NCBI GenBank assembly: GCA_013414765.1
Contig: CP058708.1
Coordinates: 4,630,748-4,694,747, forward strand
Length of the DNA stretch: 64,000 nt
Source: Candidatus Accumulibacter cognatus
GTDB taxonomy: Bacteria; Pseudomonadota; Gammaproteobacteria; Burkholderiales; Rhodocyclaceae
Reading direction: 5' to 3'
Shown piece after piece: positions 18,309-54,308 of this stretch. Made by a program: the position numbers and the translations under genes. The notes under the pieces were generated by a model. The model was not told the origin of the DNA. It ran no database searches and was given only the letters and a program-made list of their open reading frames with translations. Position 1 is the first letter of the stretch. Every line of letters begins with the position of its first letter.

Positions 18309-19891
18309 CTGAAGTTTAGACACTCGCAATCGCCAGCGGATGCCGAAGACATTCCGGCGCCGCAAAAATTTTTCGAAGAAATACAAAAAAGACTTGACAT
18401 GACGTGGGAATCGTGAGGTCGCCGCGCGCTGCTTGCGCAGGGTTCTCGCGCAAGCAGCGCGCGGCGACCAATGAGGGATCGTTTTCGATCCTGGACTTTC
18501 CCTCATGTCTCTCGCTGCCAACGTCTGCTTGCTACTCTCGGAATGGATTTCCTTTCTCCTGGTGGCGGTGCCACCGCGTTCTCGCCGGACCTTCGTCGAA
18601 CTGCTGATCGGTTGCCTGCTCAACCCGGAAGGCTGGGTCACGCGGGCCATCGGGGCCATTCGCCGGGAGGCACACTGGACCACCTATTACAAGCTCATCG
18701 AGCGAGCACAGGTGCCGGTCACGGAATTGTCGCTGCGTTTGTTACAGCTGGTGCTGACGGTGTGCCCCACCGAACTGGTCACCCTGATCCTCGACGATAC
18801 GCTGGTTCTGCGCGGCGCGAAGTCCGGGCCGGGGATCAGTATCAAGCACGATCACAGCCACAAGGCCAATCGGCCGACCTTTCTGAACAGCCAGTGCTGG
18901 GTCACGCTGGCCCTGGTCGTGCGCGTCCGCCTGGGTTCGGCGCTGACGGTGCCGATTCGCTCGTGGCTGCTCGAAGAATCGGGTCAGCGCGGCAAGCTCT
19001 GGGGGGCACGCCAACTGATGGACTCGGTCCGGGGGCACGTCCAGGGGGGGCGCTTGCTGATCGATGCCTGGTTCATGCGCCGCACCCTGATTCTTCCGTT
19101 GCTCGAACAACCGGTCCGCATCATCGGACAGGTGCGCCGCGATACGGCCTTGTTTCTGCCGCCGGAACCGGAGCCGAAACGCCGAGGCCGCCAGCGCAAG
19201 TACGGCCAGCGGATCGATGCGGCGAGGCTCGAAACCTTGCCGGTGCAGGAGATGGAGCTGATGCTGTACGGCAAGGTGCAGCGGGTTCGGGTGCGTTCGG
19301 TCATCGCTGTGGCGCGATTCCTGAAGGGGCTCCCGGTACGCGCGGTGTGGTGCGAGATGCTCCTGCCCGATCACACCTGGTCGCGCCCACGCCTGATTCT
19401 GGCCACCGAGACCGACCTGTCGGCCCAACAGGTCGTCGCGATCTACGCCGAGCGCTGGGCGATCGAGCCCTTGTTTCACCACCTGAAGCGCTGGTGGGGC
19501 GTGGCCAATCTGTGGCAGCAGTCGAAGGCCGCGCTGGAACTGTGGATGCAGATTCGCTCCACGGCCTACGCGTTGACGCAACTGCTCGCCCTGCAGTTGT
19601 GGCCGTCCTTTCCGCTGATGGCCATCGCCCCCTGGAGAAAGGGTGCCATGATCACTGCGGGCCTTTTCGCCCAGGGGCTGCGCATGCAATTTATCGGACT
19701 TCCCGTGCGCGACGCCTACGACTCGAAGTCCGGTCAATTCGTGATGCCTCTCCCCGGTCAGGATCAGCGTTTGCAGTGTTGAGACGTCTCGCCCAGCGTC
19801 GATCGGCGCTGGGGAATGCCATTGTCTTGAAAGCCATCGCTCGCCTCCGCGAAAACCCGGCGAGCGGAGCACGCGTGTGTCTAAACTTCAG
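18309..19891 (+). mobile_element. IS701-like (IS4 superfamily) insertion sequence, apparently intact
   Basis: Perfect 15-bp terminal inverted repeats CTGAAGTTTAGACAC (18309-18323) and GTGTCTAAACTTCAG (19877-19891); flanking 8-bp direct repeat GCTTCTAA (18301-18308 and 19892-19899); single 425-aa DDE transposase ORF. Confidence 0.75.
18505..19782 (+). CDS. IS701-family DDE transposase
   Basis: 425 aa; ...AIYAERWAIEPLFHHLKRWWG... C-terminal motif typical of IS4/IS701 DDE transposases. Confidence 0.8.
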   Translation: MSLAANVCLLLSEWISFLLVAVPPRSRRTFVELLIGCLLNPEGWVTRAIGAIRREAHWTTYYKLIERAQVPVTELSLRLLQLVLTVCPTELVTLILDDTLVLRGAKSGPGISIKHDHSHKANRPTFLNSQCWVTLALVVRVRLGSALTVPIRSWLLEESGQRGKLWGARQLMDSVRGHVQGGRLLIDAWFMRRTLILPLLEQPVRIIGQVRRDTALFLPPEPEPKRRGRQRKYGQRIDAARLETLPVQEMELMLYGKVQRVRVRSVIAVARFLKGLPVRAVWCEMLLPDHTWSRPRLILATETDLSAQQVVAIYAERWAIEPLFHHLKRWWGVANLWQQSKAALELWMQIRSTAYALTQLLALQLWPSFPLMAIAPWRKGAMITAGLFAQGLRMQFIGLPVRDAYDSKSGQFVMPLPGQDQRLQC

Positions 19892-20251
19892 GCTTCTAAG
19901 AAAGCTCGCCCATATGTGAAAGAACCTTGCGGTCGGATGAACTCTCGGTGAGGAAGGAGATGATCCGGATCTCGCCGCCTCACTTCAGACGGAACTGCGG
20001 GAAGTTCTCATAAATCCGGGCAAGCAGCAGGGCCCACGCGGTTCGCTCTACCTGGCGATGGATCGGCTCTTCTGTAGCTTGTATCTGAACTGCTGCGCTC
20101 GGTGCGGTGGGGAGCGGAACGTTACAGACCTCCGTTGGTGTTTGCGCTGCCGGCGTTTCGGGTGGACACGGGTCTGCAGGCCTCGAAATCCTTTTCGATC
20201 ACGGGAGTGCTTTTGAATCGACGGGTCCACGGGCCAGATCGGTGACCTGGG

Positions 20252-21550
20252 CTACGGCCCCTGTATCGCCGACACGCCGCGTTTCTTCAGGAATTTTCCA
20301 AGTTTTCGGTCGCTGGAATGGATGTGCTGCACCAGCCAGGCATGCAGCGATATCACCAACTGTCGCAGGTCGATCTGCGGGTTGGCCTTCAGTTGCAGGT
20401 CGTAGCTCGACAGTACGTCGGCCAGTTGCAGGTGCTGCGCCTGGTGCTCCCCTCTGTCCGGATAAGCGTGTTCGTGCATGAGGTCCTCCTCGAATGAAAA
20501 GTGGCTGCGCACATACTCGATCAGCGCCTTCATCACCTTTCTCGTTTCGCTCTTCTTGTCGCCCGAATGCGTGCTGGCGTCAAATCGGTTGAGGATGCGG
20601 ATCAGTTCCTGGTGCTGAGCATCGATCGAGGTGTCCCCCGTCTCGTAGGTGAATGACCACGCCAGCAAGGGGTTGCTGGCCTCCGCGAGCGGTTTCTTGA
20701 TGCGTGGCTTCGATGCGACTTCGTAAGGCGGGTTTTCCGCAAAGTCGGTCAAGGCCGCCAGCGGTAGCGGACGCGAGAAATGGTAGCCCTGGATGACATC
20801 ACAACCGTTGGCTTCGAGGAAGGCCATCTGTTCCAGGGTTTCCACCCCCTCGGCAACGGTCATGATGTCAAGCTTGTTGGCCATCTCGATGATCGCCAGC
20901 ACGATGGGAATGTTGTTTTGATCCCGGATGAACGACTGGTCGATCTTCAGGTAATCGAAAGGCAGTTGGTACAGGTAGGACAGGGACGAGTAGCCGGTGC
21001 CGAAATCGTCCAGGGCGAGATTGACACCGATCTTCTTCAGGGCCATGAGCGTGGCCTTGGTCGCCGCAAAGTCGTTGATGAAGGCGCTTTCCGTGATTTC
21101 CAGGGTCAGGCGGTAACCGGCCATGCCGTCAAGCGCTTCGGTCACCTTCGCCACGATGTCGCTCTGGGTGAGTTGCAACGGCGACAGGTTGACGGACATG
21201 TTGATGCCGGTACTGCGCATGACGCGACAGGCTTCCTGCAGGACCCACTCGCCGAGCGTGCAGATCAGGCCAGCCTCTTCGGCGATGGGAATGAAGCGCG
21301 CCGGACTGATGATTCCCAGTTCCGGGTGCGCCCATCGCACCAGCGCCTCGGCGCCGTGTACGCTCCGGCTGACCAGGCAGAGCTGCGGCTGATAATGCAG
21401 CAACAGATCACCGGGGATGGCCTGGCGCAGAGCGTTTTCGACCATCATTTTTTCCAGTGCCTGCGCGTTGATCCGTTCCGTGAAGAACTGGAAATTGTTC
21501 CGTCCCTGAGTCTTGGCATGATACATGGCGACATCGGCGTGCTTGAGCAA
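20252..21550 (-). CDS. EAL phosphodiesterase with C-terminal bacteriohemerythrin domain (downstream segment of the same gene)
   Basis: Begins inside the GGDEF C-terminus (HADVAMYHAK), then EAL motifs (EALVRW...DDFGTGYSSL...QGY) and a hemerythrin HHE cation-binding domain (IDAQHQELIRILN...H...H...H...D). Confidence 0.8.
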   Translation of the reverse strand: MLKHADVAMYHAKTQGRNNFQFFTERINAQALEKMMVENALRQAIPGDLLLHYQPQLCLVSRSVHGAEALVRWAHPELGIISPARFIPIAEEAGLICTLGEWVLQEACRVMRSTGINMSVNLSPLQLTQSDIVAKVTEALDGMAGYRLTLEITESAFINDFAATKATLMALKKIGVNLALDDFGTGYSSLSYLYQLPFDYLKIDQSFIRDQNNIPIVLAIIEMANKLDIMTVAEGVETLEQMAFLEANGCDVIQGYHFSRPLPLAALTDFAENPPYEVASKPRIKKPLAEASNPLLAWSFTYETGDTSIDAQHQELIRILNRFDASTHSGDKKSETRKVMKALIEYVRSHFSFEEDLMHEHAYPDRGEHQAQHLQLADVLSSYDLQLKANPQIDLRQLVISLHAWLVQHIHSSDRKLGKFLKKRGVSAIQGP

Positions 21551-21685
21551 ATCCGCGACGGACTCGCCGTCGGTCGGGTAGATGGCGATGCCTATCGAGG
21601 AAGTGGTGGTGACGGTATGCCTGTCGATCCGGCAGGGCTTGCCAATCGCGGCCAGAAGCTTTTGGGCAGCGTGCGTGATATCGGC

Positions 21686-22753
21686 CTAGTCGTTGAAATC
21701 CTCGAGCAGCAGCACGAACTCGTCGCCGCCCTGCCGCGAGACGGTGTCCGTGGCGCGCAGGCAGTTCTGGATGCGACGCGCCACTTCCTGCAGGAGCAGG
21801 TCTCCCACCTCGTGGCCGAGGGTGTCGTTAACCCCCTTGAACTTGTCGAGGTCGATGAACATCACCGCGAGCCTGGAGCGGTTCCGCTCCGCGCGCCCGA
21901 TCGCCTGTCTGATCCGGTCTTCCACCAGGCTGCGGTTGGGCAACCCGGTCAGGAAGTCGTGATGCGCCATGTGTTCGATTCTTGCCATCGTCCGGCTGGC
22001 TTCGGTGATGTCGTTCATCAGGCCGATGTAGTTGGTCACCGATTCGCCCGTCCGGACGATACTGATGTTGGCGTGGACCAGATACTCTTCGCCGGTCTTC
22101 TTCCTGTTCCATATGTCGCCCTGCCAATGGCCGATTTCGTGCAGGGTTTGCCACATCTTCTGAAAGAAGCTGCGCGGATGGCACTGGGAAGCAAACAGCC
22201 TGGGATTCCTGCCGAGCATTTCATCGGTGCGAAAGCCTGTCAGCCCTTCCAGCGCCCTGTTGGCAGAGATGATGAGGTTGTCCTGACTGGTGATCACGAT
22301 CCCTTCCGAGGCGTTCTCGAAAACACTGGCGGACAGTTTCAATTGCTCCTCGGCCTCCTTGTGACGGGTGATGTCCTGGAGTACCTCGATCGCACCAATG
22401 ATCTTGTCGCCGCTGAACAGCGGTTTTGCCTCGAAGGTCAGGTAACGTCGCTTGCCCTTGAGGTCGTCGAACCAGCCTTCCGCCTTGTAGCCATCACTGG
22501 CAAATTCCGTTCTCTCATGCAGACTGTAGAAGCGCGAAGCGTCCGCCAGCAGGTTGTCCAGTACCAGGTCGGCCAGGCAGGGTCTGGGCTCATCGTAGAA
22601 GCCCTTCCAGTGATCGTTGGTGCCCAGGACATCGGCGGCGGCGATGCCGGTCAACAACTCGCACGGACCATTCCAGGCCACCACCACATGCCGGGTGTCG
22701 ACCATGAATGCGGGCAGACTCAGGGCATTCAGTATGCTGCTATTCATTGCCAT
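21686..22753 (-). CDS. PAS-PAS-GGDEF sensor diguanylate cyclase, N-terminal segment ending at an in-frame TAG
   Basis: Two PAS domains then GGDEF-domain motifs (HDFLTGLPNR...RQGGDEFVLLL); the reading frame continues in frame across the TAG at 21686-21688 into the next ORF. Confidence 0.8.
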   Translation of the reverse strand: MAMNSSILNALSLPAFMVDTRHVVVAWNGPCELLTGIAAADVLGTNDHWKGFYDEPRPCLADLVLDNLLADASRFYSLHERTEFASDGYKAEGWFDDLKGKRRYLTFEAKPLFSGDKIIGAIEVLQDITRHKEAEEQLKLSASVFENASEGIVITSQDNLIISANRALEGLTGFRTDEMLGRNPRLFASQCHPRSFFQKMWQTLHEIGHWQGDIWNRKKTGEEYLVHANISIVRTGESVTNYIGLMNDITEASRTMARIEHMAHHDFLTGLPNRSLVEDRIRQAIGRAERNRSRLAVMFIDLDKFKGVNDTLGHEVGDLLLQEVARRIQNCLRATDTVSRQGGDEFVLLLEDFND

Positions 22754-23218
22754 GTTCTCTCAATTAATTCGGAGGCACGCTGCCCGCGGTGTGCAGGCTT
22801 GCCGTGCCATCTTCCCTGGGGATGACCGAGTCCTACGCAGAAGATTTTTCGTCCACAACCGACCATACTAGCCAGGGTGGGTGAGCGTGGGCAGGACTTA
22901 TTTCGCATCCATTGGATAGGCGCGCCCGGCCGGCGCGCGGACCCGCTGCCCCAACGGCATGCAGCCGTCCGTGCGTCAGCGCACAGAGCAGCGGCGGAGC
23001 AATCGGTATCATTCTCAAACGCCCCGTAGCTGCCCCTTCCGGTTCAGAGGGTGTGGGTCGTGCTCCTGCTCATCCAAGGCGGTACCGACCTCCGAAGGAT
23101 TTGTGCAGGCCCTACAAGAGAAGTCAGTCATGCCCGAAAAGGAAAACAACTCCATGCCTGCCGGCAGAGCGTCACCACCCGGACGAATCTTCCTCCAGCC
23201 AATCAGCGAAATTATGCA

Positions 23219-28106: not shown

Positions 28107-28180
28107 AGTTTGGAGCGGGAATCGAACCCGCGACACACTGAGGATGAGTCAGTTGCTCTAACCGATTGAGCTATCCAATG
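28107..28180 (-). ncRNA. tRNA-like element (tRNA-Met CAU-like D-, anticodon- and T-arms, imperfect acceptor stem)
   Basis: Minus strand reads CATTGGA-TA-GCTCAATCGGTTAGAGC-A-ACTGA-CTCATCC-TCAGT-GTGTC-GCGGGTTCGATTCCCGC-TCCAAAC-T. The D-arm is near-identical to tRNA-Met; the anticodon loop carries CAT but pyrimidines at 37 and 38; two mismatches (1-72, 2-71) in the acceptor stem. Confidence 0.5.
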
Positions 28181-28506: not shown

Positions 28507-30096
28507 ATGAAGAGGAGCGTCGTCATCGGTTTTCTCGGTACGCAACTCGATTACGGTGGCAAGGGTAGCGCACGATGGGAGAAGTGGCGGCCGACGGTCG
28601 CCCTCTGCCAGCAGGAGGAGCTGATCGTTCATCGTCTGGAGTTGCTGCATGATGCACGCAGCCGCGGGCTGGCCGAGAGTGTGCAGGCGGACATCCAGTC
28701 GATATCGCCCGAAACCGAAGTCTGCCGCGTCGAGATCGAGCTGCGCGACCCCTGGGATTTCGAGGAAGTCTACACGACGCTGCACGACTTCGCGCGCGCT
28801 TACCCGTTCGACCCCGAGAACGAGGATTACCTGCTGCACATCACGACAGGAACCCATGTCGCACAGATCTGCTGGTTCCTGCTGGCCGAAGCGCGCTATT
28901 TGCCGGCCCGACTCCTGCAGACCTCACCGGCACGCAAGAAGGAGGTGGCGAATACTGCCGGAAGCTACGAGATCATCGATCTGGACCTGTCGCGCTACAA
29001 CAAGATTGCGCAGCGCTTTCAGCGCGAGCGCGCCGACACGGTGAGCTTCCTGAAATCCGGGATTGCCACGCGCAACGCCAGTTTCAACCGCATGATCGAG
29101 CAGATCGAACGGGTAGCGGGGCGCTCGAAGTCGCCAATGCTGCTGATCGGCCCCACCGGTGCGGGCAAATCGTTTCTCGCCCGCCGGGTGTACGAACTCA
29201 AGCGACAGAAGCAGCGTCTGGCCGGACGTTTCATCGAGGTGAACTGCGCGACCTTGCGCGGCGATTCGGCCATGTCCAGCCTTTTCGGCCACGTCAAGGG
29301 AGCCTTCACGGGGGCGCAAAATGAACGCCCCGGGCTCCTTCGAGCGGCCGATGGCGGATTGCTGTTTCTAGACGAAATCGGCGAACTCGGACTGGACGAG
29401 CAGGCAATGCTACTCAAGGCGATCGAGGAAAAGCGCTTCTTCCCCTTCGGTGGCGACCAGGAAGTAACGAGCGACTTCCAGCTCATCGCCGGCACCCATC
29501 GCGACCTGCGCCATTGGGTTGCCGAGGGGCATTTCCGCGAAGACCTGTATGCGCGCATCAACCTGTGGACCTTCGACCTGCCCGGCCTGGCTCAACGGCC
29601 CGAGGACATCGAGCCCAATCTCGATTACGAGCTGGAACGTTATGCGCGTGACCATGATCAGCTCGTGCGCTTCAACGTCGAAGCCCGCCGCCGCTATCTG
29701 GCCTTTGCCAGCTCGGCGGACGCTGTCTGGAGCGGCAATTTCCGTGAACTCTCGGCATCGGTCACGCGCATGGCGACTCTGGCCGAAGCGGGACGGATCA
29801 CCGAGGCGCTGGTTATCGAGGAGATCGAGCGGCTTGGCCACAGCTGGGTCAGCCGCCGGCCGGCCGATGCGGTCGCTGCTATCCTGGGCGAACAGGCCGA
29901 GCAACTCGACCTCTTCGATCGCTGCCAGCTTAACGCGGTGATCGCTGTTTGCCGGCAAGCGGCAAGCCTTTCGGATGCCGGTCGACAGCTTTTCGCCGTA
30001 TCCCGCTTGGACAAGAAAACGGCCAACGACGCTGACCGGCTGCGCAAATACCTGTCACGCTTCGGCCTCGACTGGACGGCCGTAAATCACCAATGA
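28507..30096 (+). CDS. rtcR: sigma54-dependent transcriptional regulator RtcR (CARF domain + AAA+ + HTH)
   Basis: 529 aa; N-terminal CARF-like domain, central sigma54-interaction AAA+ (LLIGPTGAGKS...GAFTGA...GGLLFLDEIGEL), C-terminal HTH; divergent from the rtcBA operon. Confidence 0.9.
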   Translation: MKRSVVIGFLGTQLDYGGKGSARWEKWRPTVALCQQEELIVHRLELLHDARSRGLAESVQADIQSISPETEVCRVEIELRDPWDFEEVYTTLHDFARAYPFDPENEDYLLHITTGTHVAQICWFLLAEARYLPARLLQTSPARKKEVANTAGSYEIIDLDLSRYNKIAQRFQRERADTVSFLKSGIATRNASFNRMIEQIERVAGRSKSPMLLIGPTGAGKSFLARRVYELKRQKQRLAGRFIEVNCATLRGDSAMSSLFGHVKGAFTGAQNERPGLLRAADGGLLFLDEIGELGLDEQAMLLKAIEEKRFFPFGGDQEVTSDFQLIAGTHRDLRHWVAEGHFREDLYARINLWTFDLPGLAQRPEDIEPNLDYELERYARDHDQLVRFNVEARRRYLAFASSADAVWSGNFRELSASVTRMATLAEAGRITEALVIEEIERLGHSWVSRRPADAVAAILGEQAEQLDLFDRCQLNAVIAVCRQAASLSDAGRQLFAVSRLDKKTANDADRLRKYLSRFGLDWTAVNHQ

Positions 30097-30111: not shown

Positions 30112-32040
30112 TCACGCCTGGCGCTGACCATTGGTGCAGGCGGTGCAGAGAGACTTGCCGTTGGCGAACAGGCAAACCCGGTCCCGACCGGCTTTCTTGG
30201 CGGCGTAGAGGGCTTTGTCTGCAGCCCGGAGCAGGTCATCCTCATTGTCCATGCCGTTCTCCCGGTTGGCTACGCCGATGCTCACCGAGATCTTGATCTC
30301 CGTACCAGCGATGTGGATCTGCATCGCCTTGACCATCCGCCGTAGACGCTCGGCAGCCAGCAGGGCCGCTCGGGGGTCGGCATCGTGACAGACCACCAGG
30401 AACTCCTCCCCGCCGATCCGGCTGACACTATCGTCCTTGCGGGCTGCAGACTGGATGGCCTTGGCCACCTCCCGCAAGACCCGATCACCCATCGCGTGAC
30501 CATATCGGTCATTGATGGACTTGAAGAAATCAACATCGATCATGAGGGCTGCCACCGGTTGGCCCGTGCGCTGGGAGGCACTCCAGAAGCGGCTCAGCAA
30601 CTCCATGCCGGCCCTTCGATTGGGTAGCTCGGTCAGCGGGTCGGTCATCGCGGCATGTTCCAGCCGCCGGTTACTGATCGCCAGCTCTGCCGTAAACTGC
30701 TTGAGCTGTGTCCGATCCTTCTCCCAGGCCTCGAGCAGCTTCACGTAATGCAGGGCCGCCCTCATTCGGGCGCTCAAGGCTCGGACATGCACCGGTTTGG
30801 TCACGTAATCGTCGACCCCCGCTTCGAAAGCCTCGATGATCTTGCTTTCGTTCTCTTCGCCGGTCAGCATGATCACATACATGGACTGTCCCCATTCGGT
30901 GGCACGCAGGGCGCGGCAGAACTCGACCCCGTCCATGACCGGCATGTGCCAGTCGGTGATGACGATCTGGGGCATGACTTCCAGAGCCAGGGCCAGACCA
31001 TCCTCGCCATTTTCGGCGGTGTGGACCCGGCAACCGAGAAGGTGGCTCAGCAAACCCTCCGTCATCATCAGGGTCGTGGGGTCGTCCTCTACCAGCAAGA
31101 CCCGCTTACGGCTGTGCTCCGTCTTTGATTCCTGCTCCGGGCGGGGAACCGGAGCATTGGCCATGGCGCTAAACGCAGGGAGCTGGGCGGTAGGCACCTT
31201 CAGCAGATCGGTCCATGCTTGCCACTGGTGAACCACACGGTCGAATACTTCGCCCATGGCCGTCACATCCAGACCGGCCTTGCCACCCAGCAGCATCAGC
31301 TCGACAATGTTGCCATGGCGCTCCGACTCGGGTGAGCGACCGAGGTCCGCCATTCGTCGTGCCTGGAAGAACAGATGGGTCAACTGATCAGGCCGGGAAC
31401 CCTCGGAAAAGCCGGAGGTCTGCGGAAACTCGTGGTAATAGACAGGCTCGGCAAGGGCTTTAGGAATGCCGCAATCAGCGAGGATGGCGGTAGTGAATTC
31501 GGTGTGATCTGCTCCAAGACGCCTGCGCTCCAGTTCCAGGAGTACTGCACCATGGCTCTGCTCGGCCAGTACCGTCGCATAGTCGGCGGGGTAGAGGGTG
31601 GCCAGCGCCAGACGGCCGATCTGCGCCAACAGACCACAGGCAAACAGTTCGTCAGGTGAAGCAAGCCGTACCATCCGGCCCAACTCCTGGCTGGCCACCG
31701 CCATGAACAGGGAGTGGGACCAGAAAGCCGGATAATCAAAGGCGGCGCACTGTCCCTGCAGATACTGGTCGACCAGAGAAAAGCCCATGGCCAGTTGGCG
31801 GACGGTCGTCATGCCCAGGCGCATCACGGTTTCCCTGACCGAGACCAAGGGCCGAGTACCAGCCGATGAAGCATTGGCGAGACGCAACAGGCGGCTGGAG
31901 AGCGCAGGGTCGCCCTGAACTACCCGGGCCACCTCGTCAATAGTCGCATCCTCGCGCCTACAGATCTCCATGATCGCCAACGCCACCCCTTTCGGGCTGG
32001 GAAGTTGGCCGCTGATCCGCAATTGTTCGATCTTGCTCAT
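30112..32040 (-). CDS. HDOD-REC-GGDEF response regulator/diguanylate cyclase
   Basis: N-terminal HDOD domain, receiver domain (RVLLVEDDP...ITDWHMP), GGDEF domain with a GGEEF active site and RxxD I-site; start taken at MSKIEQL rather than the extended 6-frame ORF. Confidence 0.85.
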   Translation of the reverse strand: MSKIEQLRISGQLPSPKGVALAIMEICRREDATIDEVARVVQGDPALSSRLLRLANASSAGTRPLVSVRETVMRLGMTTVRQLAMGFSLVDQYLQGQCAAFDYPAFWSHSLFMAVASQELGRMVRLASPDELFACGLLAQIGRLALATLYPADYATVLAEQSHGAVLLELERRRLGADHTEFTTAILADCGIPKALAEPVYYHEFPQTSGFSEGSRPDQLTHLFFQARRMADLGRSPESERHGNIVELMLLGGKAGLDVTAMGEVFDRVVHQWQAWTDLLKVPTAQLPAFSAMANAPVPRPEQESKTEHSRKRVLLVEDDPTTLMMTEGLLSHLLGCRVHTAENGEDGLALALEVMPQIVITDWHMPVMDGVEFCRALRATEWGQSMYVIMLTGEENESKIIEAFEAGVDDYVTKPVHVRALSARMRAALHYVKLLEAWEKDRTQLKQFTAELAISNRRLEHAAMTDPLTELPNRRAGMELLSRFWSASQRTGQPVAALMIDVDFFKSINDRYGHAMGDRVLREVAKAIQSAARKDDSVSRIGGEEFLVVCHDADPRAALLAAERLRRMVKAMQIHIAGTEIKISVSIGVANRENGMDNEDDLLRAADKALYAAKKAGRDRVCLFANGKSLCTACTNGQRQA

Positions 32041-32153
32041 GTGTTCCTGCTGATGGTGGCTGGTTTCTCGTTCCCGAGCAGCATGTAGTCTATCAGCCTT
32101 GCCGTGCAAGGAATCGATTTCAGGCAGCGAATGGCCTGTGCATGGGTTCCGGG

Positions 32154-32522
32154 TCATGCGGGGAGATAGGCATCTTCTTCCCGGATGCTGGTCGGATCGC
32201 TTGCTCCCTGAAGGTCTGCCGCGAGCAGGCCAGGGGGTTGCGCGGGCCCGCTTGCGGTCGGGTCGGTGTCGGCGGCCGTGTCGAGGAAGCTTCTGATGGC
32301 CTCTGCAAGTCGCCACCGGTGCAAGGCCAGCGAGGCCCCGACCTGGCGACGGGCTGCAACGCGGTCGCCGATGGCGAGCGAACAGAGCGCCTGTTCGAGC
32401 AGGCGCGCCGCTTGCCCGATCGCCTGCCGGACGAGCGAAAAATCGCAGCCGCAACGCGGACAGACGGCCGCTTCGGCCAGGCGCGCCCGACACGCCGGAC
32501 AGCGATCGAGCAGTTCAGACAT
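32154..32522 (-). CDS. C4 zinc-ribbon protein, translationally coupled to the upstream Hsp70
   Basis: CPACRARLAEAAVCPRCGC (CxxC-x9-CxxC) followed by a ~100-aa Ala/Arg-rich tail; ATGTCTGA start/stop overlap with the Hsp70 gene. Confidence 0.55.
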   Translation of the reverse strand: MSELLDRCPACRARLAEAAVCPRCGCDFSLVRQAIGQAARLLEQALCSLAIGDRVAARRQVGASLALHRWRLAEAIRSFLDTAADTDPTASGPAQPPGLLAADLQGASDPTSIREEDAYLPA

Positions 32523-34284
32523 CGAGGTAATACAGGAGGTCGGCAAGCGCATCCATCGCCACTTTCAGGTCGGCGTCCGATCCCTCGGTTTGGTTTTTGA
32601 CAACTTCTATGCCATTCACCAGATCCTCGGCATCTTCCGTACCCGCCCTGGCCAGCAGTCGCTCGGCCTTTTCGATCAGGGTGCCGGCTTCGACGCGCAG
32701 GCGCCTGCGGTCGTCTGAAGGTGAAGCCTCGGTGGTAGTCGCGACGGGCTGCCTGTCGGCGCCTTCCTGCTCGCCAAACAGGCCATCGATGCGTTCCCGT
32801 GCTTCCGCCAGCTTGTCGCCGGTGAAGCGGCTGATGGCATTGTCGATGGTAATCGAATGCACCAGGCCGGTTTCCTTCTCGCGTGAAGTCACCTCCAGGA
32901 TACCGTTGACATCGAGCGAAAAGGTGGTGACCAGCGGGTTGCCGGCCGGCGCATCGCGCAAGCCATCGATGGTGAATCGCCCGATCTCGATGTTGTTCAG
33001 CGCGTCCGGGTCCTCGCCCTGGTAGACGTGGATGTCGACCTTGCTCTGACCGTCGAAAATGGTGCAGAAGCCCTCGCTCCTTGAGACCGGAATCGGTGTG
33101 TTCTTGCGAATCAGCGGCACGAAGCAGAAGGGGTACATTTGACCATTGAAATACTCGAGAGCGCTGGTACCGAAGGTGTAGGGCGTGACATCGATGAGCA
33201 CCGTCGGGGCCTGGCCGCCGGCGATCACGGCTGCCTGGATGGCGGCGCCCATTGCGACACAGAGATCGGGATCGACCTCGGCGCGCGGCTGCATCCCGAG
33301 TTCCTGCTCAAGGCGGCGCTGGACGAGCGGTGTCCGCGTGGCCCCACCGACGAGCAGGATTTCGTTGATGTCGGCGACCGTCAGTCCGGCGCCACTCAAG
33401 GCGATATGCACGGCGTCGAGGGTCTCGGCGATATACGGCTCGATCATCTCCTCGTATTCGTTGCGCGAAACTTCGACCGACAGGTGGATCGGCACGCCAT
33501 CCTTCTCGAGCAGGTACTCTTCCGAGAGCGTGGCGTAAGGTTCGCTGGAAAGGATGATCTTGGCCGCTTCCGCAGCGTGCTGCAGGCGAGCCATGGCCAG
33601 CGGATGCTGTCCGACATCGATGTCGTGCCGCTCGCGCAGATGATCGGTCGCGAAGCTGATCAGTTTCTGGTCGAAATCGTCGCCACCCAGATGATTGTTG
33701 CCGTGACTGGACAGCACTTCAACGACATCGCTCTCCAGGTTGACGACCGAGACATCGAAGGTGCCACCGCCGAGGTCATAGACCAGCGCCTTGCGGGCGC
33801 CGCTGTGGCAGCTTTCATAGGCCAGCGCCGCTGCTGTCGGCTCGTTGATGATGCGTACCACCTCCAGACCGGCGATTTCGCCGGCTTCGCGCGTCGCCTG
33901 ACGTTGGGCATCGGAGAAATAGGCGGGCACGGTAATTACCGCCTTGCCCACGGGCTCACCCAGGTGCGCCTCGGCGATGTCCCGCAGTCGGCGCAGGATC
34001 ATCGCCGAGATTTCCTGCGGGCTGTAATCCTTGCCGGCCATCTGCACCGAGGCGAACTCACCCATTCGACGCTTGATCGAACGTACGCTGCGCTCGGGGT
34101 GCAGCGCATACTGATTGCGCGCCGCCTCGCCGACCAGCAGGCTGCCGTCGTCGGCAACCCCCACCAGCGAGGGCAGAATGCGTACACCGGGTACCACCGG
34201 AATGACCTCGACACGTCCTTCACGGACGATTGCCACTTCTGAATTGGTCGTACCGAGATCGATACCGACAATGATTTCCGTCAT
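32515..34284 (-). CDS. Hsp70-family ATPase, short non-canonical HscC-like paralog (589 aa)
   Basis: IGIDLGTTNS, DLGGGTFD, ILLVGGATRTP actin-fold motifs plus a substrate-binding domain; shorter than DnaK and not in a dnaK-dnaJ context. Confidence 0.9.
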   Translation of the reverse strand: MTEIIVGIDLGTTNSEVAIVREGRVEVIPVVPGVRILPSLVGVADDGSLLVGEAARNQYALHPERSVRSIKRRMGEFASVQMAGKDYSPQEISAMILRRLRDIAEAHLGEPVGKAVITVPAYFSDAQRQATREAGEIAGLEVVRIINEPTAAALAYESCHSGARKALVYDLGGGTFDVSVVNLESDVVEVLSSHGNNHLGGDDFDQKLISFATDHLRERHDIDVGQHPLAMARLQHAAEAAKIILSSEPYATLSEEYLLEKDGVPIHLSVEVSRNEYEEMIEPYIAETLDAVHIALSGAGLTVADINEILLVGGATRTPLVQRRLEQELGMQPRAEVDPDLCVAMGAAIQAAVIAGGQAPTVLIDVTPYTFGTSALEYFNGQMYPFCFVPLIRKNTPIPVSRSEGFCTIFDGQSKVDIHVYQGEDPDALNNIEIGRFTIDGLRDAPAGNPLVTTFSLDVNGILEVTSREKETGLVHSITIDNAISRFTGDKLAEARERIDGLFGEQEGADRQPVATTTEASPSDDRRRLRVEAGTLIEKAERLLARAGTEDAEDLVNGIEVVKNQTEGSDADLKVAMDALADLLYYLDV

Positions 34285-35003
34285 GGGTTGGTTGCTTTCT
34301 TGCTGACAATGACTTCGGCGACACGCAACAGCTCGCCATTATGGAGAAACCCGCGCCTGACCTCGCGCAGGATGGTGCCATCCGGCACGCTTGACGAACT
34401 GCTAGCGGCCTCGACGCCGACCACCCGCATTCGTTGCGGATCGAGGATCTCGCCGAGCACTGGCAGCGGCCGCACCCGATGGCTGGCGAGCAGGTCGTCG
34501 AGGCGCTGCAGGGTCAGCCGCTGGCCCTCCGCCAGGCTCGCCGCGAAACGCGTCGGTCCGGGCACCAGACGCGTCAGAAACGACGACGGTGGCTTTCCGG
34601 CGGCGTCGACACCGCTTTGCAGGCGATCGCGCAGGTCCAGCAGGGCCAGCAGAAATTGCCGCTCGGTCTGCCCCTGGATCGATGCTGCCTGCTCCCGCGC
34701 TCGTTCGAGATCACGCTGCAGGCGCTCGCCGTGTTGACGCAGGTCGTTGCCAAAACCTCTTAATTCATCAAGGGTATTCTTGAACTGGCGAGATTGCAGC
34801 CGCAATTCGCTCTTCAGAACGGCCATCTCGCTGAGCAGGGTGGCCAGGTCAACCGAGGTCTCTGTATCGCCGGCGGCCTGGTCATCCGGCTCACCCGCCG
34901 GTTCGCACTCGCACTGCCTGGCCGCACGCTCGAGAGCGGCGCGGAAATCGTCTACCAGACGCGCTCTTTCCTCGGGGTCGAGGACGATCACCGGCGAGTT
35001 CAT
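34281..35003 (-). CDS. GrpE-like nucleotide-exchange-factor homolog
   Basis: Coiled-coil N-region; C-terminal ...FDP-like PLPVLGEILDPQRMRVVG...GTILREVRRGFLHNGELLRVAEVIVSK matches the GrpE beta-domain pattern (V..GY..NG.LLRPA.V.V); 4-nt overlaps on both sides. Confidence 0.65.
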   Translation of the reverse strand: MNSPVIVLDPEERARLVDDFRAALERAARQCECEPAGEPDDQAAGDTETSVDLATLLSEMAVLKSELRLQSRQFKNTLDELRGFGNDLRQHGERLQRDLERAREQAASIQGQTERQFLLALLDLRDRLQSGVDAAGKPPSSFLTRLVPGPTRFAASLAEGQRLTLQRLDDLLASHRVRPLPVLGEILDPQRMRVVGVEAASSSSSVPDGTILREVRRGFLHNGELLRVAEVIVSKKATNP

Positions 35004-35290
35004 TTCGCTCCCAGTAACCGCAGCAGCCGCCGTTCGGTGGGTGGCTGCGGGACAAAATCGCTGCTGACGGCGCTCAACAAATCATCGATGGTTGGCAGGG
35101 AACAGTCGAACAGCGCGTGCGCCAGCCGCCGATGATGGTTGCAGATCGCCTCATAGGCCGTGCGTACGCTCTCGAAGCGCTCGCGGTCACGTTCCGGGGG
35201 CGATTCGCGAATCGCCGCCAGGTAAGCGGCACGAATCGTCTCGTCAGCCGCCGTCAGGTCGACGCCAAGAATGCGGTAGGGGTCAATCAT
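35000..35290 (-). CDS. J-like domain protein lacking the HPD motif
   Basis: MIDPYRILGVDLTAADETIRAAYLAAIRESPPERDRERFESVRTAYEAI has the J-domain helix I-III pattern, but SPPERD replaces HPD; ATGATTGA overlap with the upstream TPR-like gene. Confidence 0.65.
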   Translation of the reverse strand: MIDPYRILGVDLTAADETIRAAYLAAIRESPPERDRERFESVRTAYEAICNHHRRLAHALFDCSLPTIDDLLSAVSSDFVPQPPTERRLLRLLGAK

Positions 35291-37817
35291 CGAACAGCCC
35301 TTTCTGTCGATCGTCCTGAACGGGTTGTTTTGGCGCGGTCGAGCGAGACCTCGGCTTCGGCTCCGGCAGCCCGCCCGACGGGGAAGCGGTGAAAGAAGGC
35401 AGATCGAGGTTTGCAAGGCTTTCGGCCAGCAGTTCGATCAACATTTCGGCCAGCTTTTTCCGGTTGCCGCCGGCAGCATGCTCGAGCGGACGAAACTTGC
35501 TGTCGGGGAGGATCTCGCGGGCCATGCGGATCACTTCGTTGGGTCCCCCCATCGACATCAAAAGATTGAACACCTCCCGTGGATTCGCAGGCAAATCGTC
35601 AACTAAATCGCCGAAGTCATCGTCGTCGTCGAAGTCATCCGAATCCTCGCCACTGAAATAGCCTGGCGGCCCCATCAGATCGCGGATCCGCAGCACCGTC
35701 CGTTGGTCGCCGTCCTCCAGGGCCTTCTTCAGCGCACCTTCCAGGGCCTGTCGCTCGCGCTCCGACATCGCGAAAAAAGCACCTTGGCCGTGTTTGGCAA
35801 AGGTCGCCAGATAGACAAAAAGCGGCCGCTCGGGCCAGCGCCGCAAACCGGCATCGGCGTAGGCCTGCAGAAGTGCCCGCTCTTCCCGTCTCAACAGCGT
35901 CTCGCAGATCGAGATCCGTTCGGATTCACTGAACTCGCCAGCAGCCGCGCGTTTCAGCGGCGCCCGCAGGGTGTCGAGAACGGTCCGCAGTGCCTTCGAC
36001 TCGTTGTCGCCCAGTGCGTTGATGGCGTGCATGACGGTCAGCACTTCTCGAGGCATGGGCATTCCCGACAGGTCAGGCGCTGCCCGGCGCAGTTCTCCGG
36101 CCGGCTGGCTGCCGACCCGGATGCTTTCGAGCAGAACGTGCCAGGCAGCGAGCAGCCTGCCTCCCAGTTCGCCGACGGCTTCACGCAACAGCACGGTCGC
36201 TCGCGCATCGTCGGCGCTCAGCCCGCGCAACAGCTTGCTAACGCTGCGTTCATTTGCGGTAGCGAGCCATACGTCGGCGAGGTCGAGTTCCTTGCCGGCC
36301 GCTTCCGGTCGGTGCAGCCGAATCTGTTTTCGGGCATGCGACAGGTGCGCTCGACCGATCAGCGCCCGCACCTTCGAATTGATCGGATCGAGATCGAGCA
36401 GACGTTTGGCGAGTGTCACCGCTTTCTTGAAGGCATTGCCGGCCAGTGCCGTTTCGACGGCTTCGAGCAATACTGCCGGGTCGTTGGCAAAGCGCGCCAG
36501 CGCCGTCTCGACAGACGCACGCGCTGCTTTCATATTCCGTCCCTGGCGGTGCAGGCGGATCAGCTTCAGGTGCGTGGCGCGGTCGTCCGGGTCGAGTTCC
36601 AGGCTGCGTTCGAGCCAGGAGGTGCACTCGTCATCATAGTCCGAAGCATCCTTGTCGCCGACGATCAGATCAAAGAGATGGCGAAGGATCAAGGCCGCCT
36701 GCAGCGGCGCTTCCTCCGTCGAAAACAGGCGGACAGCGTGCAACCAGTGCGATTCGCTGTGATTGATTGCACCCCGGCATTGGGCGGCGAGAGCCAGGAT
36801 GCGCTCGCTCTCTGCTTCGCCCAGTGGACCGAAAGCATTCCGGTACTCAGCAAGACGTTTTTCCGCGTAAGGCAGCAGGCGGCGACAAAGCCTGGCTGCC
36901 GTTGCCGGTAGGCCGCGGCTGCGGCGCAGCAGTAGGTCGACGACCCCGGTCGGCGTCGGAGGTACGCCATTCCTGGCCAGTGCGGCCACTTCGAGCAACA
37001 GCGGGCGCCGATTCTCCGGGCAACCCTTGATTTCCAGCAACAAGTACCGGCCCTCCTCGTCGAGATCGAGCAGAGCCAACAGCCAGCCCTTGCCCGGCAG
37101 GACGCCGGCACGAACGACCGCGGCCAGTTTCTCGAAGGGGCCGTCGACAGTCACTCGGGCGATCAGGCCGGCCGCCTGGGCAGCGTCATTGCCGACCAGT
37201 AGCAGTGCCTTGAGGATGAAGCGCAGATCACGATATGGAGAGCGAAAGGGAATACAGCGCAATTGCTCGTCCAGGTCGGCCAGATCACCCCGGCAGCAGG
37301 CGGCAATGGCTGCCTGTGCTGCCGCACGATGACGGCGCAGCGGACTGTCGGCGGCGAGCTGAGCGAGGGCGCTGTCGGGCGCGGTCAGCGCCACCGCCGC
37401 CAGACGGGTTTCCAGGTCGGCGTCGACGGTTGCCACGGCATCGCCTGTCGGCGTCAGCAGACGCAGTGCCGCGTCATGTGCGCCGGTACGCAGTAACCAG
37501 TCGAGGTAGGGGCCCTCGACCAGCGATTTGCCACACAGCGTGGAGCGGTTGCGCCAGATCACCAGCGCCTCCTGCAGCATGCTCTTGCTTGCCAGCTCCT
37601 TGGCCCGACCGGCGTAGCTCGCCGCCAAGCCGTCAAGCCATTCGGATCGACGTTCTTGCTTGAGCAGGTTCTTGTAGAGTTCGATCGCCTCACGATAGCG
37701 GCCCGCGTCGAGAACCTGTCTGGCATGTGCTTCGGGGGATACGGGAGTGCCCGCTGGCGCAGGACGCGACAGCGCTGGTCGATGCTTGCGCGACATGATC
37801 GAGAGACTTACCCGCAA
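35283..37817 (-). CDS. Large (844 aa) alpha-helical TPR-like repeat protein with an acidic DSDDFDDDDDFGD tract; first gene of the Hsp70 operon
   Basis: Repeated Leu/Ala-rich helical hairpins (TPR/Sel1-like by eye); no P-loop; coding bias consistent across the whole ORF. Confidence 0.75.
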   Translation of the reverse strand: MRVSLSIMSRKHRPALSRPAPAGTPVSPEAHARQVLDAGRYREAIELYKNLLKQERRSEWLDGLAASYAGRAKELASKSMLQEALVIWRNRSTLCGKSLVEGPYLDWLLRTGAHDAALRLLTPTGDAVATVDADLETRLAAVALTAPDSALAQLAADSPLRRHRAAAQAAIAACCRGDLADLDEQLRCIPFRSPYRDLRFILKALLLVGNDAAQAAGLIARVTVDGPFEKLAAVVRAGVLPGKGWLLALLDLDEEGRYLLLEIKGCPENRRPLLLEVAALARNGVPPTPTGVVDLLLRRSRGLPATAARLCRRLLPYAEKRLAEYRNAFGPLGEAESERILALAAQCRGAINHSESHWLHAVRLFSTEEAPLQAALILRHLFDLIVGDKDASDYDDECTSWLERSLELDPDDRATHLKLIRLHRQGRNMKAARASVETALARFANDPAVLLEAVETALAGNAFKKAVTLAKRLLDLDPINSKVRALIGRAHLSHARKQIRLHRPEAAGKELDLADVWLATANERSVSKLLRGLSADDARATVLLREAVGELGGRLLAAWHVLLESIRVGSQPAGELRRAAPDLSGMPMPREVLTVMHAINALGDNESKALRTVLDTLRAPLKRAAAGEFSESERISICETLLRREERALLQAYADAGLRRWPERPLFVYLATFAKHGQGAFFAMSERERQALEGALKKALEDGDQRTVLRIRDLMGPPGYFSGEDSDDFDDDDDFGDLVDDLPANPREVFNLLMSMGGPNEVIRMAREILPDSKFRPLEHAAGGNRKKLAEMLIELLAESLANLDLPSFTASPSGGLPEPKPRSRSTAPKQPVQDDRQKGLFDD

Positions 37818-38192
37818 TAAATCAAACTTAGATTCTACATGAAATAATCCGCTTCCCTGTCGGTAAGAATTCGTCAGCAGCCATTCTCATATTGGCCAAC
37901 CAGACCTTCTGCTTCCCCAGCGAGCGCATGGAAATCGGCAACAATTGCGAGACTTGATTTCTGAGTTTCCACCACTATTCTGTTATGGAGACATCAAAAA
38001 GCGAAGCAGGATGCTTGCTCGCTGCAAGAATGCCGCGTTTCCAGGGGGGCAACCCGTGAGTTGCGCAGTTCTTGCGATGTTGAAGGTCGTTTTTCGTCGT
38101 TTGACTCACAGCTTGCCGGGTAGACCAGCCGATAAGCGTGCGGTTTGTTCCCGTCGGCGAGCGATGGGGCAGTGTGCACAAAGGAGATTGTC

Positions 38193-38850: not shown

Positions 38851-39324
38851 TCAGTGATTGCGTTCGCTGGCTGGCGGCGTGCTTGCAGTCAGGTCGCGCA
38901 CTTCGGCCCTGACGTCGACGGCCTCGACTTTCTTGTCCCGGCTTTCGACCTGCAGTGTCAGCGGCACCATATCGCCCTTCTTGAGAGGCTGTTTCAGGTC
39001 GATGAGCATGACGTGGTAGCCGCCGGGTCCGAGCTGCACTGGTTTGCCAGCCGGTAGCTCAAGGCGCGGGATGGCACGCATTTTCATGACGCCGCCATCC
39101 ATCTTCATTTCATGGATTTCGGTGCTGCCGGCCGCCGGGCTGGCAGCACCGACCAGCACGGCTCCTGACTTGCTGGTGATGGCCATGAAGGCGCCGGTCG
39201 CCTGCTGGCCGCTGACCGTTCCGCGAACCCATGGATCCTTGATATCGACATCAGCGGCGAGCGCGGCCAGCGACGAGCAGTTGAGCAGCATCGCCAGCGT
39301 CACGACAGTAGGTGTAGTTTTCAT
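38851..39324 (-). CDS. copper chaperone PCu(A)C (DUF461)
   Basis: Signal peptide; H(x)M...M-rich motifs (IHEMKMDGGVMKMR) typical of PCuAC. Confidence 0.85.
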   Translation of the reverse strand: MKTTPTVVTLAMLLNCSSLAALAADVDIKDPWVRGTVSGQQATGAFMAITSKSGAVLVGAASPAAGSTEIHEMKMDGGVMKMRAIPRLELPAGKPVQLGPGGYHVMLIDLKQPLKKGDMVPLTLQVESRDKKVEAVDVRAEVRDLTASTPPASERNH

Positions 39325-39870: not shown

Positions 39871-40452
39871 TCATTTGCCGGCCAGCAACAGCTTCAGATC
39901 GGCAGCAACGTTGGCGGACGTTTCGCCGTGGCTGACGAGAAGCCGCAGCCGCCCCTGGGGATCAAAGACATAGCTGCCCGTGGAGTGGTCGATGCTGTAG
40001 CTGCCGGGTGAACTGCCTGCATGCCTGGCGTAGAAAACCTTGAAATCCCTGGCGACTGCCGCGATGGCCGTCTCGTCGCCACGCAGGCCAATGAAACTCG
40101 GATGAAACGCGCGGGCGTATTCGGCCAATACCTGCGCCGTGTCACGTGCCGGGTCGAGGGTGACGAAGATCACCTGGACGCGGCCGGCATTGTCGCCGAG
40201 ACGGCCCAGCACCTCGCGCATCGATGAAAGCGTCGTCGGACAGACATCAGGGCACTGCGTGTAACCAAAGAAGACGATGACCACCTTGCCCTCGAAATCG
40301 GCCAGACGACGTGTCTGACCCTGCGGGTCGGTCAAGGTGAAGCCCTTGCCCCAGTCGGCGCCGGAAATGTCGGTCGATTTGAAGTTCGGCGGTTGCGAGC
40401 AGCCGGAAAACAGCAGGGTGATGCAGAGGATCAAGGTCGAGAGTATTTTCAT
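39871..40452 (-). CDS. SCO1/SenC-family copper chaperone (thioredoxin fold)
   Basis: Lipoprotein signal (LFSGCS); CPDVCP metal-binding motif; conserved His downstream. Confidence 0.85.
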   Translation of the reverse strand: MKILSTLILCITLLFSGCSQPPNFKSTDISGADWGKGFTLTDPQGQTRRLADFEGKVVIVFFGYTQCPDVCPTTLSSMREVLGRLGDNAGRVQVIFVTLDPARDTAQVLAEYARAFHPSFIGLRGDETAIAAVARDFKVFYARHAGSSPGSYSIDHSTGSYVFDPQGRLRLLVSHGETSANVAADLKLLLAGK

Positions 40453-40783
40453 GGTGGTCGCGAGCAACCTGGATGCAGGTTGGTCATTGTCGCTCATTCC
40501 GGGCTCGCTGCGGCAGACAGGCAAGATTTGCCGGCTAATTCTATTCCTTTCGGCCCCCAAGAGATGTGGCCACTGGCGCGGACTGCTGCATAATCGCTGG
40601 CAGTCGCCGTCTTCGTGAAGTATAGTCCGTAGGCTGGTTTGGCCAACAGGGCGCAACCCGACAGCCCGAGGCAAAGAATGCCGGGTTACGCAGCGCTGAC
40701 CTGACCTGACGAGGATTGGCGGTAGTAAAAACAAGGGCTGAGAGGCACTTGTCGCGACCCGTCCCGGAATCAATTTTTGGAGG

Positions 40784-53979: not shown

Positions 53980-54255
53980 ATGACTGAAACGATTGTTGCT
54001 TACCTGAGAGCCAATGCGGAGCAACTTGATGTGGATATGGCCGAGGCGCTCAATATCCCGATCGTCGAGTTACGCGAGCAGATTGCCCGGCTCGCTGCAT
54101 CGGGAGACGTAATCTGTTGCAGGGTAACTCGCTTCATCGATGGCCGGAAGATCGAGGGTATCAGTTGTCGCCTCTCGTGCGATCCGCCGACGCCGGCGCG
54201 CGGGCGCAAACCGGGCGTAAAAAAGGACGACGATTCGGAGGTAAACCTGTTTTAA
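53980..54255 (+). CDS. small winged-helix-like hypothetical protein (FeoC-like fold?)
   Basis: 91 aa; MTETIVAYLRANAEQLDVDMAEALNIPIVELREQIARLAASGDV resembles small wHTH proteins; Cys-containing C-terminus. Confidence 0.35.
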   Translation: MTETIVAYLRANAEQLDVDMAEALNIPIVELREQIARLAASGDVICCRVTRFIDGRKIEGISCRLSCDPPTPARGRKPGVKKDDDSEVNLF

Positions 54256-54308
54256 GCGGGCGCACGCGGCCGTCCACGTGCTGTTGTGCCATGCTATACC
54301 GTGCGCGG

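Follow-up and report, generated by a model that had tools for sequence, protein, structure and literature searches.

Operon layout

What kind of Hsp70 system is encoded by a run of genes in Candidatus Accumulibacter cognatus that places an Hsp70 beside GrpE-like, J-like, repeat and zinc-ribbon proteins and a GGDEF regulator, and which of these genes belong to it? The run lies in a stretch of 64,000 nucleotides (nt), which is called the window here. As judged from gene order across species, the conserved unit is five genes, not six, and this cassette, a single translationally coupled operon, probably encodes a self-contained, specialised, scaffold-targeted Hsp70 machine of five proteins. An affinity to E. 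coli HscC and DjlC and a Q-x-x-L-F motif at the scaffold C-terminus are additions to the initial annotation of this DNA. Six genes were found in 30112–37796 (open reading frame (ORF) list), co-directional and all on the minus strand as the initial annotation had it, and these and the upstream region are listed below.

35283–37796, minus strand: scaffold gene, 837 amino acids (aa), all-helical tetratricopeptide repeat (TPR)-like solenoid (ORF, Pfam TPR_19, AlphaFold2)
35000–35290, minus strand: J-domain-only protein (J-protein), 96 aa, with a conserved C-terminal extension of ~35 aa (Pfam DnaJ)
34281–35003, minus strand: GrpE paralogue, presumed nucleotide exchange factor, 240 aa (Pfam GrpE)
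32515–34284, minus strand: Hsp70, HscC-like paralogue with a GrpE-signature loop, 589 aa (Pfam HSP70)
32154–32522, minus strand: zinc-ribbon protein, 122 aa, CxxC-x9-CxxC, three helices and a variable tail
30112–32040, minus strand: HDOD-REC-GGDEF response regulator, 642 aa (Pfam), a lineage-specific neighbour outside the conserved cassette
37797–38192, no strand assigned: divergent intergenic region between the scaffold gene and an Hsp20 gene, presumed promoter region

The four start/stop overlaps first noted were all recovered by direct reading of the sequence: ATGATTGA at 35283–35290 (scaffold stop, J-protein start), ATGA at 35000–35003 (J-protein stop, GrpE start), ATGA at 34281–34284 (GrpE stop, Hsp70 start) and ATGTCTGA at 32515–32522 (Hsp70 stop, zinc-ribbon start). 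The zinc-ribbon stop lies at 32154 and the ATG of the regulator (the cyclase below) at 32040, which gives a gap of 113 nt and agrees with the earlier figure of ~110 bp. For the scaffold, the ATG at 37796 is the most likely start (837 aa), because MSRK begins both the family consensus and a 100%-identical 837-aa database protein (P0001); the length of 844 aa given before had been counted from a TTG at 37817 and was corrected. All five cassette proteins were exact matches to Candidatus Accumulibacter cognatus QLH51994–QLH51998, for which public records carry generic names only.

Sigma-70 and terminator scans of the operon region gave matches at shuffle level only, the sigma-54 consensus was found once in 70 cassette upstream regions versus 0.85 in shuffles (no enrichment), and 37797–38192 contained no recognisable sigma-70, sigma-32 or sigma-54 consensus. 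The term 'IS-flanked' was loose: transposase fragments are indeed present, but were found only 13–17 kb off. One (16774–17301, minus strand) is an ORF with a DDE_3 domain, and the other (54824–55345, minus strand) is an HTH_29/HTH_23 ORF that adjoins an ORF without a Pfam match (54070–54783).

Conservation of the five-gene cassette

One genome per species was scanned for 185,579 species, and 78 loci were returned (cited by handles such as L001 where needed). The order scaffold, J-protein, GrpE, Hsp70 was identical at every one of the 78 loci whose contig extends far enough, and the zinc-ribbon gene was fifth in order at loci with sufficient contig, missing only in L076. Median junctions, in gene order, were −8, −4, −4 and +2 nt over 64–74 related loci, and such tight junctions are therefore not due to chance. 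Pairwise identities of the five proteins correlated with r = 0.76–0.96 (59 complete loci), and independent gene calls reproduced the cassette in L001, L083 and L084, the zinc-ribbon call not being listed in the L084 table. Carriers were Betaproteobacteria (Accumulibacter, Propionivibrio, Rhodoferax, Polaromonas, Variovorax, Massilia, Paraburkholderia, Gallionella, Sulfuricellaceae, Thiobacillus), Gammaproteobacteria (Thiomargarita, Thiothrix, Sedimenticola, Methylococcales), Magnetococcales and Desulfobulbales, and include cultured Variovorax, Polaromonas, Massilia and Paraburkholderia strains. In several classes of Pseudomonadota and in Desulfobulbales, the five genes are thus inherited together. 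The strong co-conservation of scaffold, J-protein, GrpE, Hsp70 and zinc-ribbon genes at the 78 species loci, together with the overlaps, supports the original proposal of a translationally coupled operon with a private Hsp70 machine.

The distribution is sparse and patchy (78–92 of 185,579 species). In a profile search of 1.84 billion representatives, the scaffold family comprised at least 526 clusters at E ≤ 1e-30 and was distinct and full-length (~830 aa). Mean pairwise identity of the Hsp70 across the family was 67% and the scaffold has many invariant columns; by these measures the cassette proteins evolve slowly.

All-against-all clustering of 787 flanking ORFs gave no sixth conserved gene, only lineage-specific synteny and large generic families. 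This bears on a reading, contained in the initial annotation, in which six genes form one module that couples chaperone activity to cyclic di-GMP (c-di-GMP) synthesis via the HDOD-REC-GGDEF regulator. The cyclase gene is co-directional with the cassette, lies downstream of it across 113 nt that hold no terminator-like site, and has intact GGEEF and RxxD motifs; of the 78 loci, however, only three have it behind the cassette, namely those of the closest Accumulibacter (L001, L002 and L010), and the downstream gene elsewhere is unrelated (MCP, ParE, AbiE and others), which makes such coupling very improbable. The domain assignment itself was confirmed by Pfam (HDOD, Response_reg and GGDEF), and with an RKDD (RxxD) I-site five residues upstream of GGEEF the protein is probably an active, product-inhibited diguanylate cyclase. 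Hsp20 and RtcR were matched only at a few loci from the nearest Accumulibacter (L001, L002, L004, L010). Linkage to Hsp20, RtcR and the cyclase is therefore lineage-specific and a coupling to c-di-GMP, Hsp20 or RNA repair has no comparative support; the Hsp20 and Rtc context that was first stressed is an adjacency of this lineage.

Hsp70 and GrpE paralogue

The Hsp70 was matched by Pfam HSP70 with 485 bits and was 42% identical to DnaK, 36% to HscC and 37% to HscA (E. coli proteins). It missed both DnaK equivalog cut-offs (NF001413, 536.6 bits versus 648; TIGR02350, 530.2 bits versus 822.55) and the HscA equivalog cut-off (406.9 bits versus 708.55); an HscB_C domain was not matched in the J-protein (Pfam), and isc genes are absent nearby. 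The GrpE paralogue was matched by Pfam GrpE (PF01025) with 66.3 bits versus a cut-off of 25.8 over profile positions 15–165 of 165 and stayed below all NCBIfam equivalog cut-offs (best 37 bits versus 231), and it is therefore classed as diverged. The Hsp70 and GrpE assignments of the initial annotation thus passed profile searches, and its statement that this is not a canonical dnaK-dnaJ-grpE or hscAB locus agrees with the NCBIfam equivalog cut-offs, all of which were missed.

Three bacterial Hsp70 types are recognised (DnaK, HscA and HscC), of which HscC is poorly understood (PMC8215388). Its features are a deletion of DnaK 76–101, a deletion of the D211 loop and a 4–8-residue insertion in loop L1,2; it is without the GrpE-signature loop and both nucleotide-cleft salt bridges and is thought not to use GrpE (PMC8215388). 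In the alignment, a gap of ~24 residues at DnaK 76–101 was common to the cassette Hsp70 and E. coli HscC, and the phmmer match of the cassette Hsp70 to E. coli DnaK splits at this deletion. The column of D211, in a loop near the J-domain site, was gapped in 66/66 family Hsp70s and also in HscC and HscA. Loop L1,2 of the beta part of the substrate-binding domain (SBD) is longer by ~8 residues (..YFNGQMYPFCF..), which lie where HscC has its insertion and are conserved across the family, and the short lid has the same end point as that of HscC. The GrpE-signature loop was 27 aa long in 66/66 family Hsp70s (DnaK 27, HscC 21, HscA 17), and its full length matches a private, predicted GrpE whose gene overlaps the Hsp70 start codon. 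Of the two nucleotide-cleft salt bridges, K55/E267 is kept and R56/E264 is lost. The domain set is complete (nucleotide-binding domain (NBD), linker, SBD and lid), and the protein is less aberrant than the earlier label 'non-canonical short Hsp70' implied.

Residues K70, R167, N170, E171, T173, T199, Q378, L391, D393, P419 and F426 were conserved in 65–66 of the 66 sequences; judged by this, the Hsp70 appears to have kept its ATPase, its interdomain allostery and the site where the J-domain docks. Acidic contacts to the J-domain are lost (E206 replaced by N, D211 deleted, D477 replaced by S). An EEVD-like TPR-binding tail was also considered for the Hsp70 and dropped: the conserved end L-A-D-L-L-Y-Y-L-E aligns with lid helix E of DnaK and is therefore more likely structural than a free tail.

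J-protein

The J-protein was matched by Pfam DnaJ (PF00226) with 30.3 bits versus a cut-off of 27.8 (residues 3–56), and the His-Pro-Asp (HPD) triplet is replaced, as the first description of a J-like cofactor without HPD had noted.

35192–35200, minus strand: PPE triplet replacing HPD, J-protein residues 31–33 (alignment with E. coli DnaJ)

The whole family of this J-protein has [PS]P[ED] at this position. The J-domain is closest to those of E. coli DjlB and DjlC, the partners of HscC, with which it aligned without gaps at 38–40% identity; these carry HPE, and their loop from helix II to helix III is short in the same way. At 96 aa the cassette protein is a bare J-domain and is without a membrane anchor, where a DjlB/DjlC-type partner is tail-anchored and ~480 aa long. 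HPE variants occur in ~1% of J-proteins (PMC10410713). Helix II has fewer basic residues than that of DnaJ, which parallels the loss of acidic contacts on the Hsp70 and thus suggests a co-evolved, less electrostatic interface.

These two proteins also bear on the possibility that the cassette is a stress-inducible back-up for proteostasis, i.e. a second general DnaK-like machine acting with the neighbouring Hsp20 in heat or proteotoxic stress. The window cassette is divergent from the Hsp20 gene and near the Rtc stress locus, the core Hsp70 residues are all intact, and GrpE and J partners are present. Against this, only L001 and L004 showed Hsp20 adjacency, the regions upstream of the cassette held sigma-32-like promoters at chance frequency (21/70 regions versus a shuffled mean of 21.25, no enrichment), client-binding domains are absent from the 96-aa J-protein, the Hsp70's substrate-binding loop L1,2 carries the conserved 8-aa insertion, and a dedicated 837-aa scaffold argues for one target over general folding. 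A general back-up role is accordingly rated as clearly unlikely.

Scaffold and zinc-ribbon protein

The scaffold was matched by Pfam TPR_19 with 27.6 bits versus a cut-off of 25, and a confident AlphaFold2 model (110 homologues; predicted local distance difference test (pLDDT) 88.7) contained helices only, in keeping with the TPR-like scaffold of the first description. Its regions are a solenoid (20–710), an acidic tract, a helical domain (739–796) and a disordered Pro/basic tail (798–825).

35592–35654, minus strand: acidic disordered tract of the scaffold, residues ~715–735, ...SGEDSDDFDDDDDFGDLVDD..., pLDDT <50

A Foldseek search of the model against the PDB gave only generic TPR scaffolds (Ctr9, Ski3, APC subunits, Naa15) with TM ~0.2; the structural neighbours of the predicted fold are thus assembly scaffolds.

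32451–32501, minus strand: C4 zinc-ribbon knuckles, zinc-ribbon protein residues 8–24, CPACRARLAEAAVCPRC

Cys8, 11, 21 and 24 of the zinc-ribbon protein were each >90% conserved. The AlphaFold2 model has helices at 29–51, 54–67 and 71–85 (pLDDT >90), or ~1.5 TPR units after the zinc knuckle, and these superpose locally on single TPR units. No Pfam family matched this protein above cut-off (zinc-ribbon matches were sub-threshold only), no zf-DNL/Hep1 match was obtained with Pfam, and the fold search gave no significant match (best E = 0.78).

C-terminal motif of the scaffold

35292–35306, minus strand: QKGLF, followed by DD-COOH, at the scaffold C-terminus, in the form of a beta-clamp-binding motif

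A Q-x-x-[LMF]-F motif was present within the last 14 residues of 168/245 (69%) scaffold family proteins, where ~0.0015 would be expected per such 14-residue stretch. It nearly always ends 0–2 residues from the C-terminus, with the consensus Q-x-[DGN]-L-F-(D/E)(D/E)-COOH, and the variants among homologues were QKDLF (45), QKGLF (23), QLDLF (15), QLELF (4) and QLNLF (3). Overlap with the J-protein gene was considered as the cause of this conservation and rejected: the motif is kept in L040, L047, L052, L078 and L079, where the overlap is absent or different, and the ATGATTGA overlap therefore does not account for it.

The beta-clamp motif has the consensus QL[SD]LF, with QLDLF as the strongest known peptide, is tolerant at position 2 and slightly favours Asp at position 3, and it often ends a disordered C-terminal tail, with acidic residues or the free carboxylate after it (PMC11139829). 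The same layout, Q-x-x-L-F at the end of a disordered tail and then acidic residues and the carboxylate, is found in Pol II, in Pol IV and at the C-terminus of Pol III alpha, and some scaffold homologues share exact QLDLF, QLNLF or QLELF with clamp-binding proteins. Unlike the clamp-binding polymerases, the scaffold has no nucleic-acid enzyme domain, and its position 2 is mostly K, R or G. That the C-terminal peptide is a genuine beta-clamp-binding motif, and the cassette an Hsp70 remodelling machine recruited to DNA-loaded clamps, is a possible but rather doubtful reading. The residue at position 2 speaks against it, being K, R or G and not L in most betaproteobacterial members, as do the 31% of the family in which the motif is missing and basic runs or other sequences form the end; drawn from a short linear motif, it is a lead and not a demonstration. 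The clamp partners catalogued in PMC11139829 include no chaperone, and among the matches listed in a full-text literature search no paper joined a clamp-binding motif with Hsp70 or tetratricopeptide. If the reading were true, the machine may act at stalled forks or after DNA damage, where it would strip off or recycle either clamp-bound proteins or the clamps themselves. In that case it would also be the first known example of a chaperone system tied to the clamp hub, would link chaperones with the replisome in an unexpected way, and might explain the unexplained UV sensitivity of E. coli hscC mutants.

Homologues without the motif (P0168, P0195, P0205, P0226, P0230 and others) mostly have Arg/Lys-run ends. 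A few end in ...DSDSEIPF, ...GFPF or ...FPFPF, and ...DSDSEIPF resembles the C-terminal tip DDDIPF of SSB.

Proposed mechanism

In the scaffold-targeted machine favoured here, the J-domain would dock on the conserved R167/Q378/P419/linker site of the Hsp70 and trigger ATP hydrolysis, and the GrpE paralogue would reset the Hsp70. The 837-aa solenoid would be the specificity factor: with the J-protein and/or the Hsp70 bound to it, it would direct the machine to a single client or cellular site. Specificity and localisation would be provided by the solenoid grooves and the C-terminal docking peptide, whose most likely receptor, by form, would be the beta sliding clamp. The zinc-ribbon/TPR-hairpin protein may have an accessory or escort role. 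What was observed is co-inheritance, domain identities and the conservation of residues and motifs; what we infer is the interactions, the client and the tail receptor.

Several points weigh against this machine. The family is sparse and the cassette is therefore an accessory rather than a core function. Replacement of the HPD His abolished stimulation in every system tested (PMC8215388), so that the PPE protein could, by analogy with Pam16, be a non-stimulating tether or regulator rather than an activator. TPR matches of the scaffold in Pfam are weak and the fold search yielded generic solenoids only. Finally, at the distant loci L083 and L084 the cassette sits among defence or toxin genes.

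The last point would fit a chaperone-based conflict or anti-phage module, in which the TPR solenoid acts as the sensor of an invader protein and the Hsp70 cycle sets the threshold of, or triggers, the response, as in the NTPase-plus-repeat systems of Kaur et al. 2020. So would the patchy, sparse spread over 78–92 of 185,579 species, the occurrence of Cas3, PDC-S22, mad2/mad3 and RT-protease among neighbours, and the HSP70, GrpE and DnaJ/TPR themes of GTPase-centred conflict systems (Kaur et al., PMC7159879). None of the five cassette proteins, however, had a PADLOC-DB 2.0 match at E ≤ 0.01 or an effector domain; no GTPase or other sixth gene is conserved; 72,556 plasmids and 50,697 phages held no scaffold copy; of 125 neighbouring genes at 33 loci most were metabolic or housekeeping, with only ~5 PADLOC-positive (PADLOC and Pfam); and the proteins evolve slowly (Hsp70 mean pairwise identity 67%). 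The conflict role that the initial annotation had considered has accordingly found little support (no PADLOC matches, no plasmid or phage copies, mostly housekeeping neighbours) and is regarded as quite improbable.

Neighbours at L083 (1–8388, 14607–20586) are a Schlafen/AlbA_2 and HATPase_c_4 protein, ParE, a UvrD/DEAD protein of >1740 aa and a 2364-aa DUF4011-AAA_11/12-MTES_1575-DUF3320 helicase; those at L084 (6616–12157) are AbiEii/AbiEi and IS66.

Comparison with known systems

The cassette Hsp70 shares with E. coli HscC the DnaK 76–101 deletion, the D211-loop deletion, the L1,2 insertion and the short lid with its end point. The J-protein shares with the DjlB and DjlC J-domains a gapless alignment at 38–40% identity and a deviation from HPD (HPE there). 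The E. coli hscC locus (b0644–b0650) is also alike in having TPR-class repeat proteins, the Sel1-repeat YbeQ and YbeT. It differs in that HscC is without the GrpE-signature loop, whereas the cassette Hsp70 has a loop of DnaK length (66/66) and a GrpE gene in the operon, in that DjlB and DjlC, which have HPE, are tail-anchored and 475–483 aa long, whereas the cassette J-protein is soluble, 96 aa long and has PPE, and in that E. coli is without a counterpart to either the scaffold or the zinc-ribbon protein. In identity the Hsp70 is closer to DnaK (42%) than to HscC (36%). At the E. coli K-12 hscC locus (L080, 676711–680215), the DUF1266 proteins ybeR and ybeU are encoded just upstream of djlB and djlC. 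Their starts, MDMESQKILF and MNKEEQYLLF, have an acidic stretch and then Q-x-x-L-F, a scaffold-like motif that is maybe a coincidence or part of a helix.

With DnaK-DnaJ-GrpE the cassette appears to share Hsp70, J-domain and GrpE activities, together with conserved catalytic and allosteric residues, linker, GrpE loop and K55/E267. In contrast to that system, the NCBIfam DnaK, DnaJ and GrpE equivalog cut-offs are missed, R56/E264 is lost, two extra dedicated subunits are present and there is no sign of a heat-shock promoter; the J-protein, compared with DnaJ, is without a G/F region, zinc-finger, client-binding domains and HPD.

In Myxococcus xanthus (MXAN_6672–MXAN_6671), an Hsp70 paralogue (MxDnaK2/SglK) is, as in the cassette, co-transcribed with its own GrpE paralogue, according to passages of PMC11019930 on this operon, which describe it as bicistronic and dedicated to non-heat-shock functions. 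The likeness is thus one by description only, and the Myxococcus operon differs in having two genes; by the same passages no J-protein lies beside the MxDnaK genes, and they mention no adjacent scaffold or zinc-ribbon gene (PMC11019930).

GAP1-N2 systems (Kaur et al. 2020, PMC7159879) resemble the cassette in that Hsp70 and GrpE are tied to J/TPR modules outside the housekeeping operon. They are built on GTPases, have J/TPR fused to FNIII proteins and occur mainly in Actinobacteria and Firmicutes (PMC7159879). The cassette differs from them: no GTPase or sixth gene is conserved (787 flanking ORFs), and J-domain and TPR are separate proteins.

The mitochondrial import motor PAM consists of mtHsp70, Mge1, Pam18/Pam16, Tim44 and Hep1/Zim17. 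Its parts list is that of the cassette, namely an Hsp70, a GrpE-type factor, an HPD-less J-like protein, a docking scaffold and a C4 zinc-ribbon escort, and is an analogy only. Homology to PAM is limited to Hsp70, GrpE and J, with no zf-DNL match, and the cassette has no second, HPD-bearing J-protein and no membrane component.

No description of the five-gene cassette was found in the full-text literature, where a prior mention is possible; this agrees with the earlier remark that the architecture is not a described system. The cassette would form a coherent fourth arrangement, in which an HscC-like Hsp70 with apparent GrpE dependence kept is combined with an HPD-less J family and two new dedicated subunits. 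A J family without the supposedly essential His of HPD offers a natural test of how much HPD is needed, and the cassette a compact, operon-encoded system for studying scaffold targeting of an Hsp70.

Other features of the window

The window begins inside a ribosomal RNA (rRNA) operon, because 1–593 (plus strand) holds a 23S rRNA gene, of which only the 3' end is present, and an entire 5S rRNA gene, followed by rpsB-tsf-pyrH-like genes. The ORFs at 18471–19919 (plus strand, 482 aa) and 20780–22825 (plus strand, 681 aa) matched no Pfam family at E ≤ 0.001 and encode either unknown proteins or are shadow ORFs of high-GC sequence. Just past the Hsp20 gene, a PCu(A)C copper chaperone (38851–39324, minus strand) and SCO1/SenC (39871–40497, minus strand) adjoin and are a cytochrome-oxidase copper-delivery pair. 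A tRNA gene with a CAT anticodon (28107–28180, minus strand; Rfam tRNA 51 bits, ARAGORN tRNA-Met) sits between rtcR (28507–30096, plus strand) and divergent band-7, zinc-finger, rtcB and rtcA genes; it heads this RNA-repair operon, which is controlled by RtcR, and may encode a tRNA-like RNA with a link to Rtc function.

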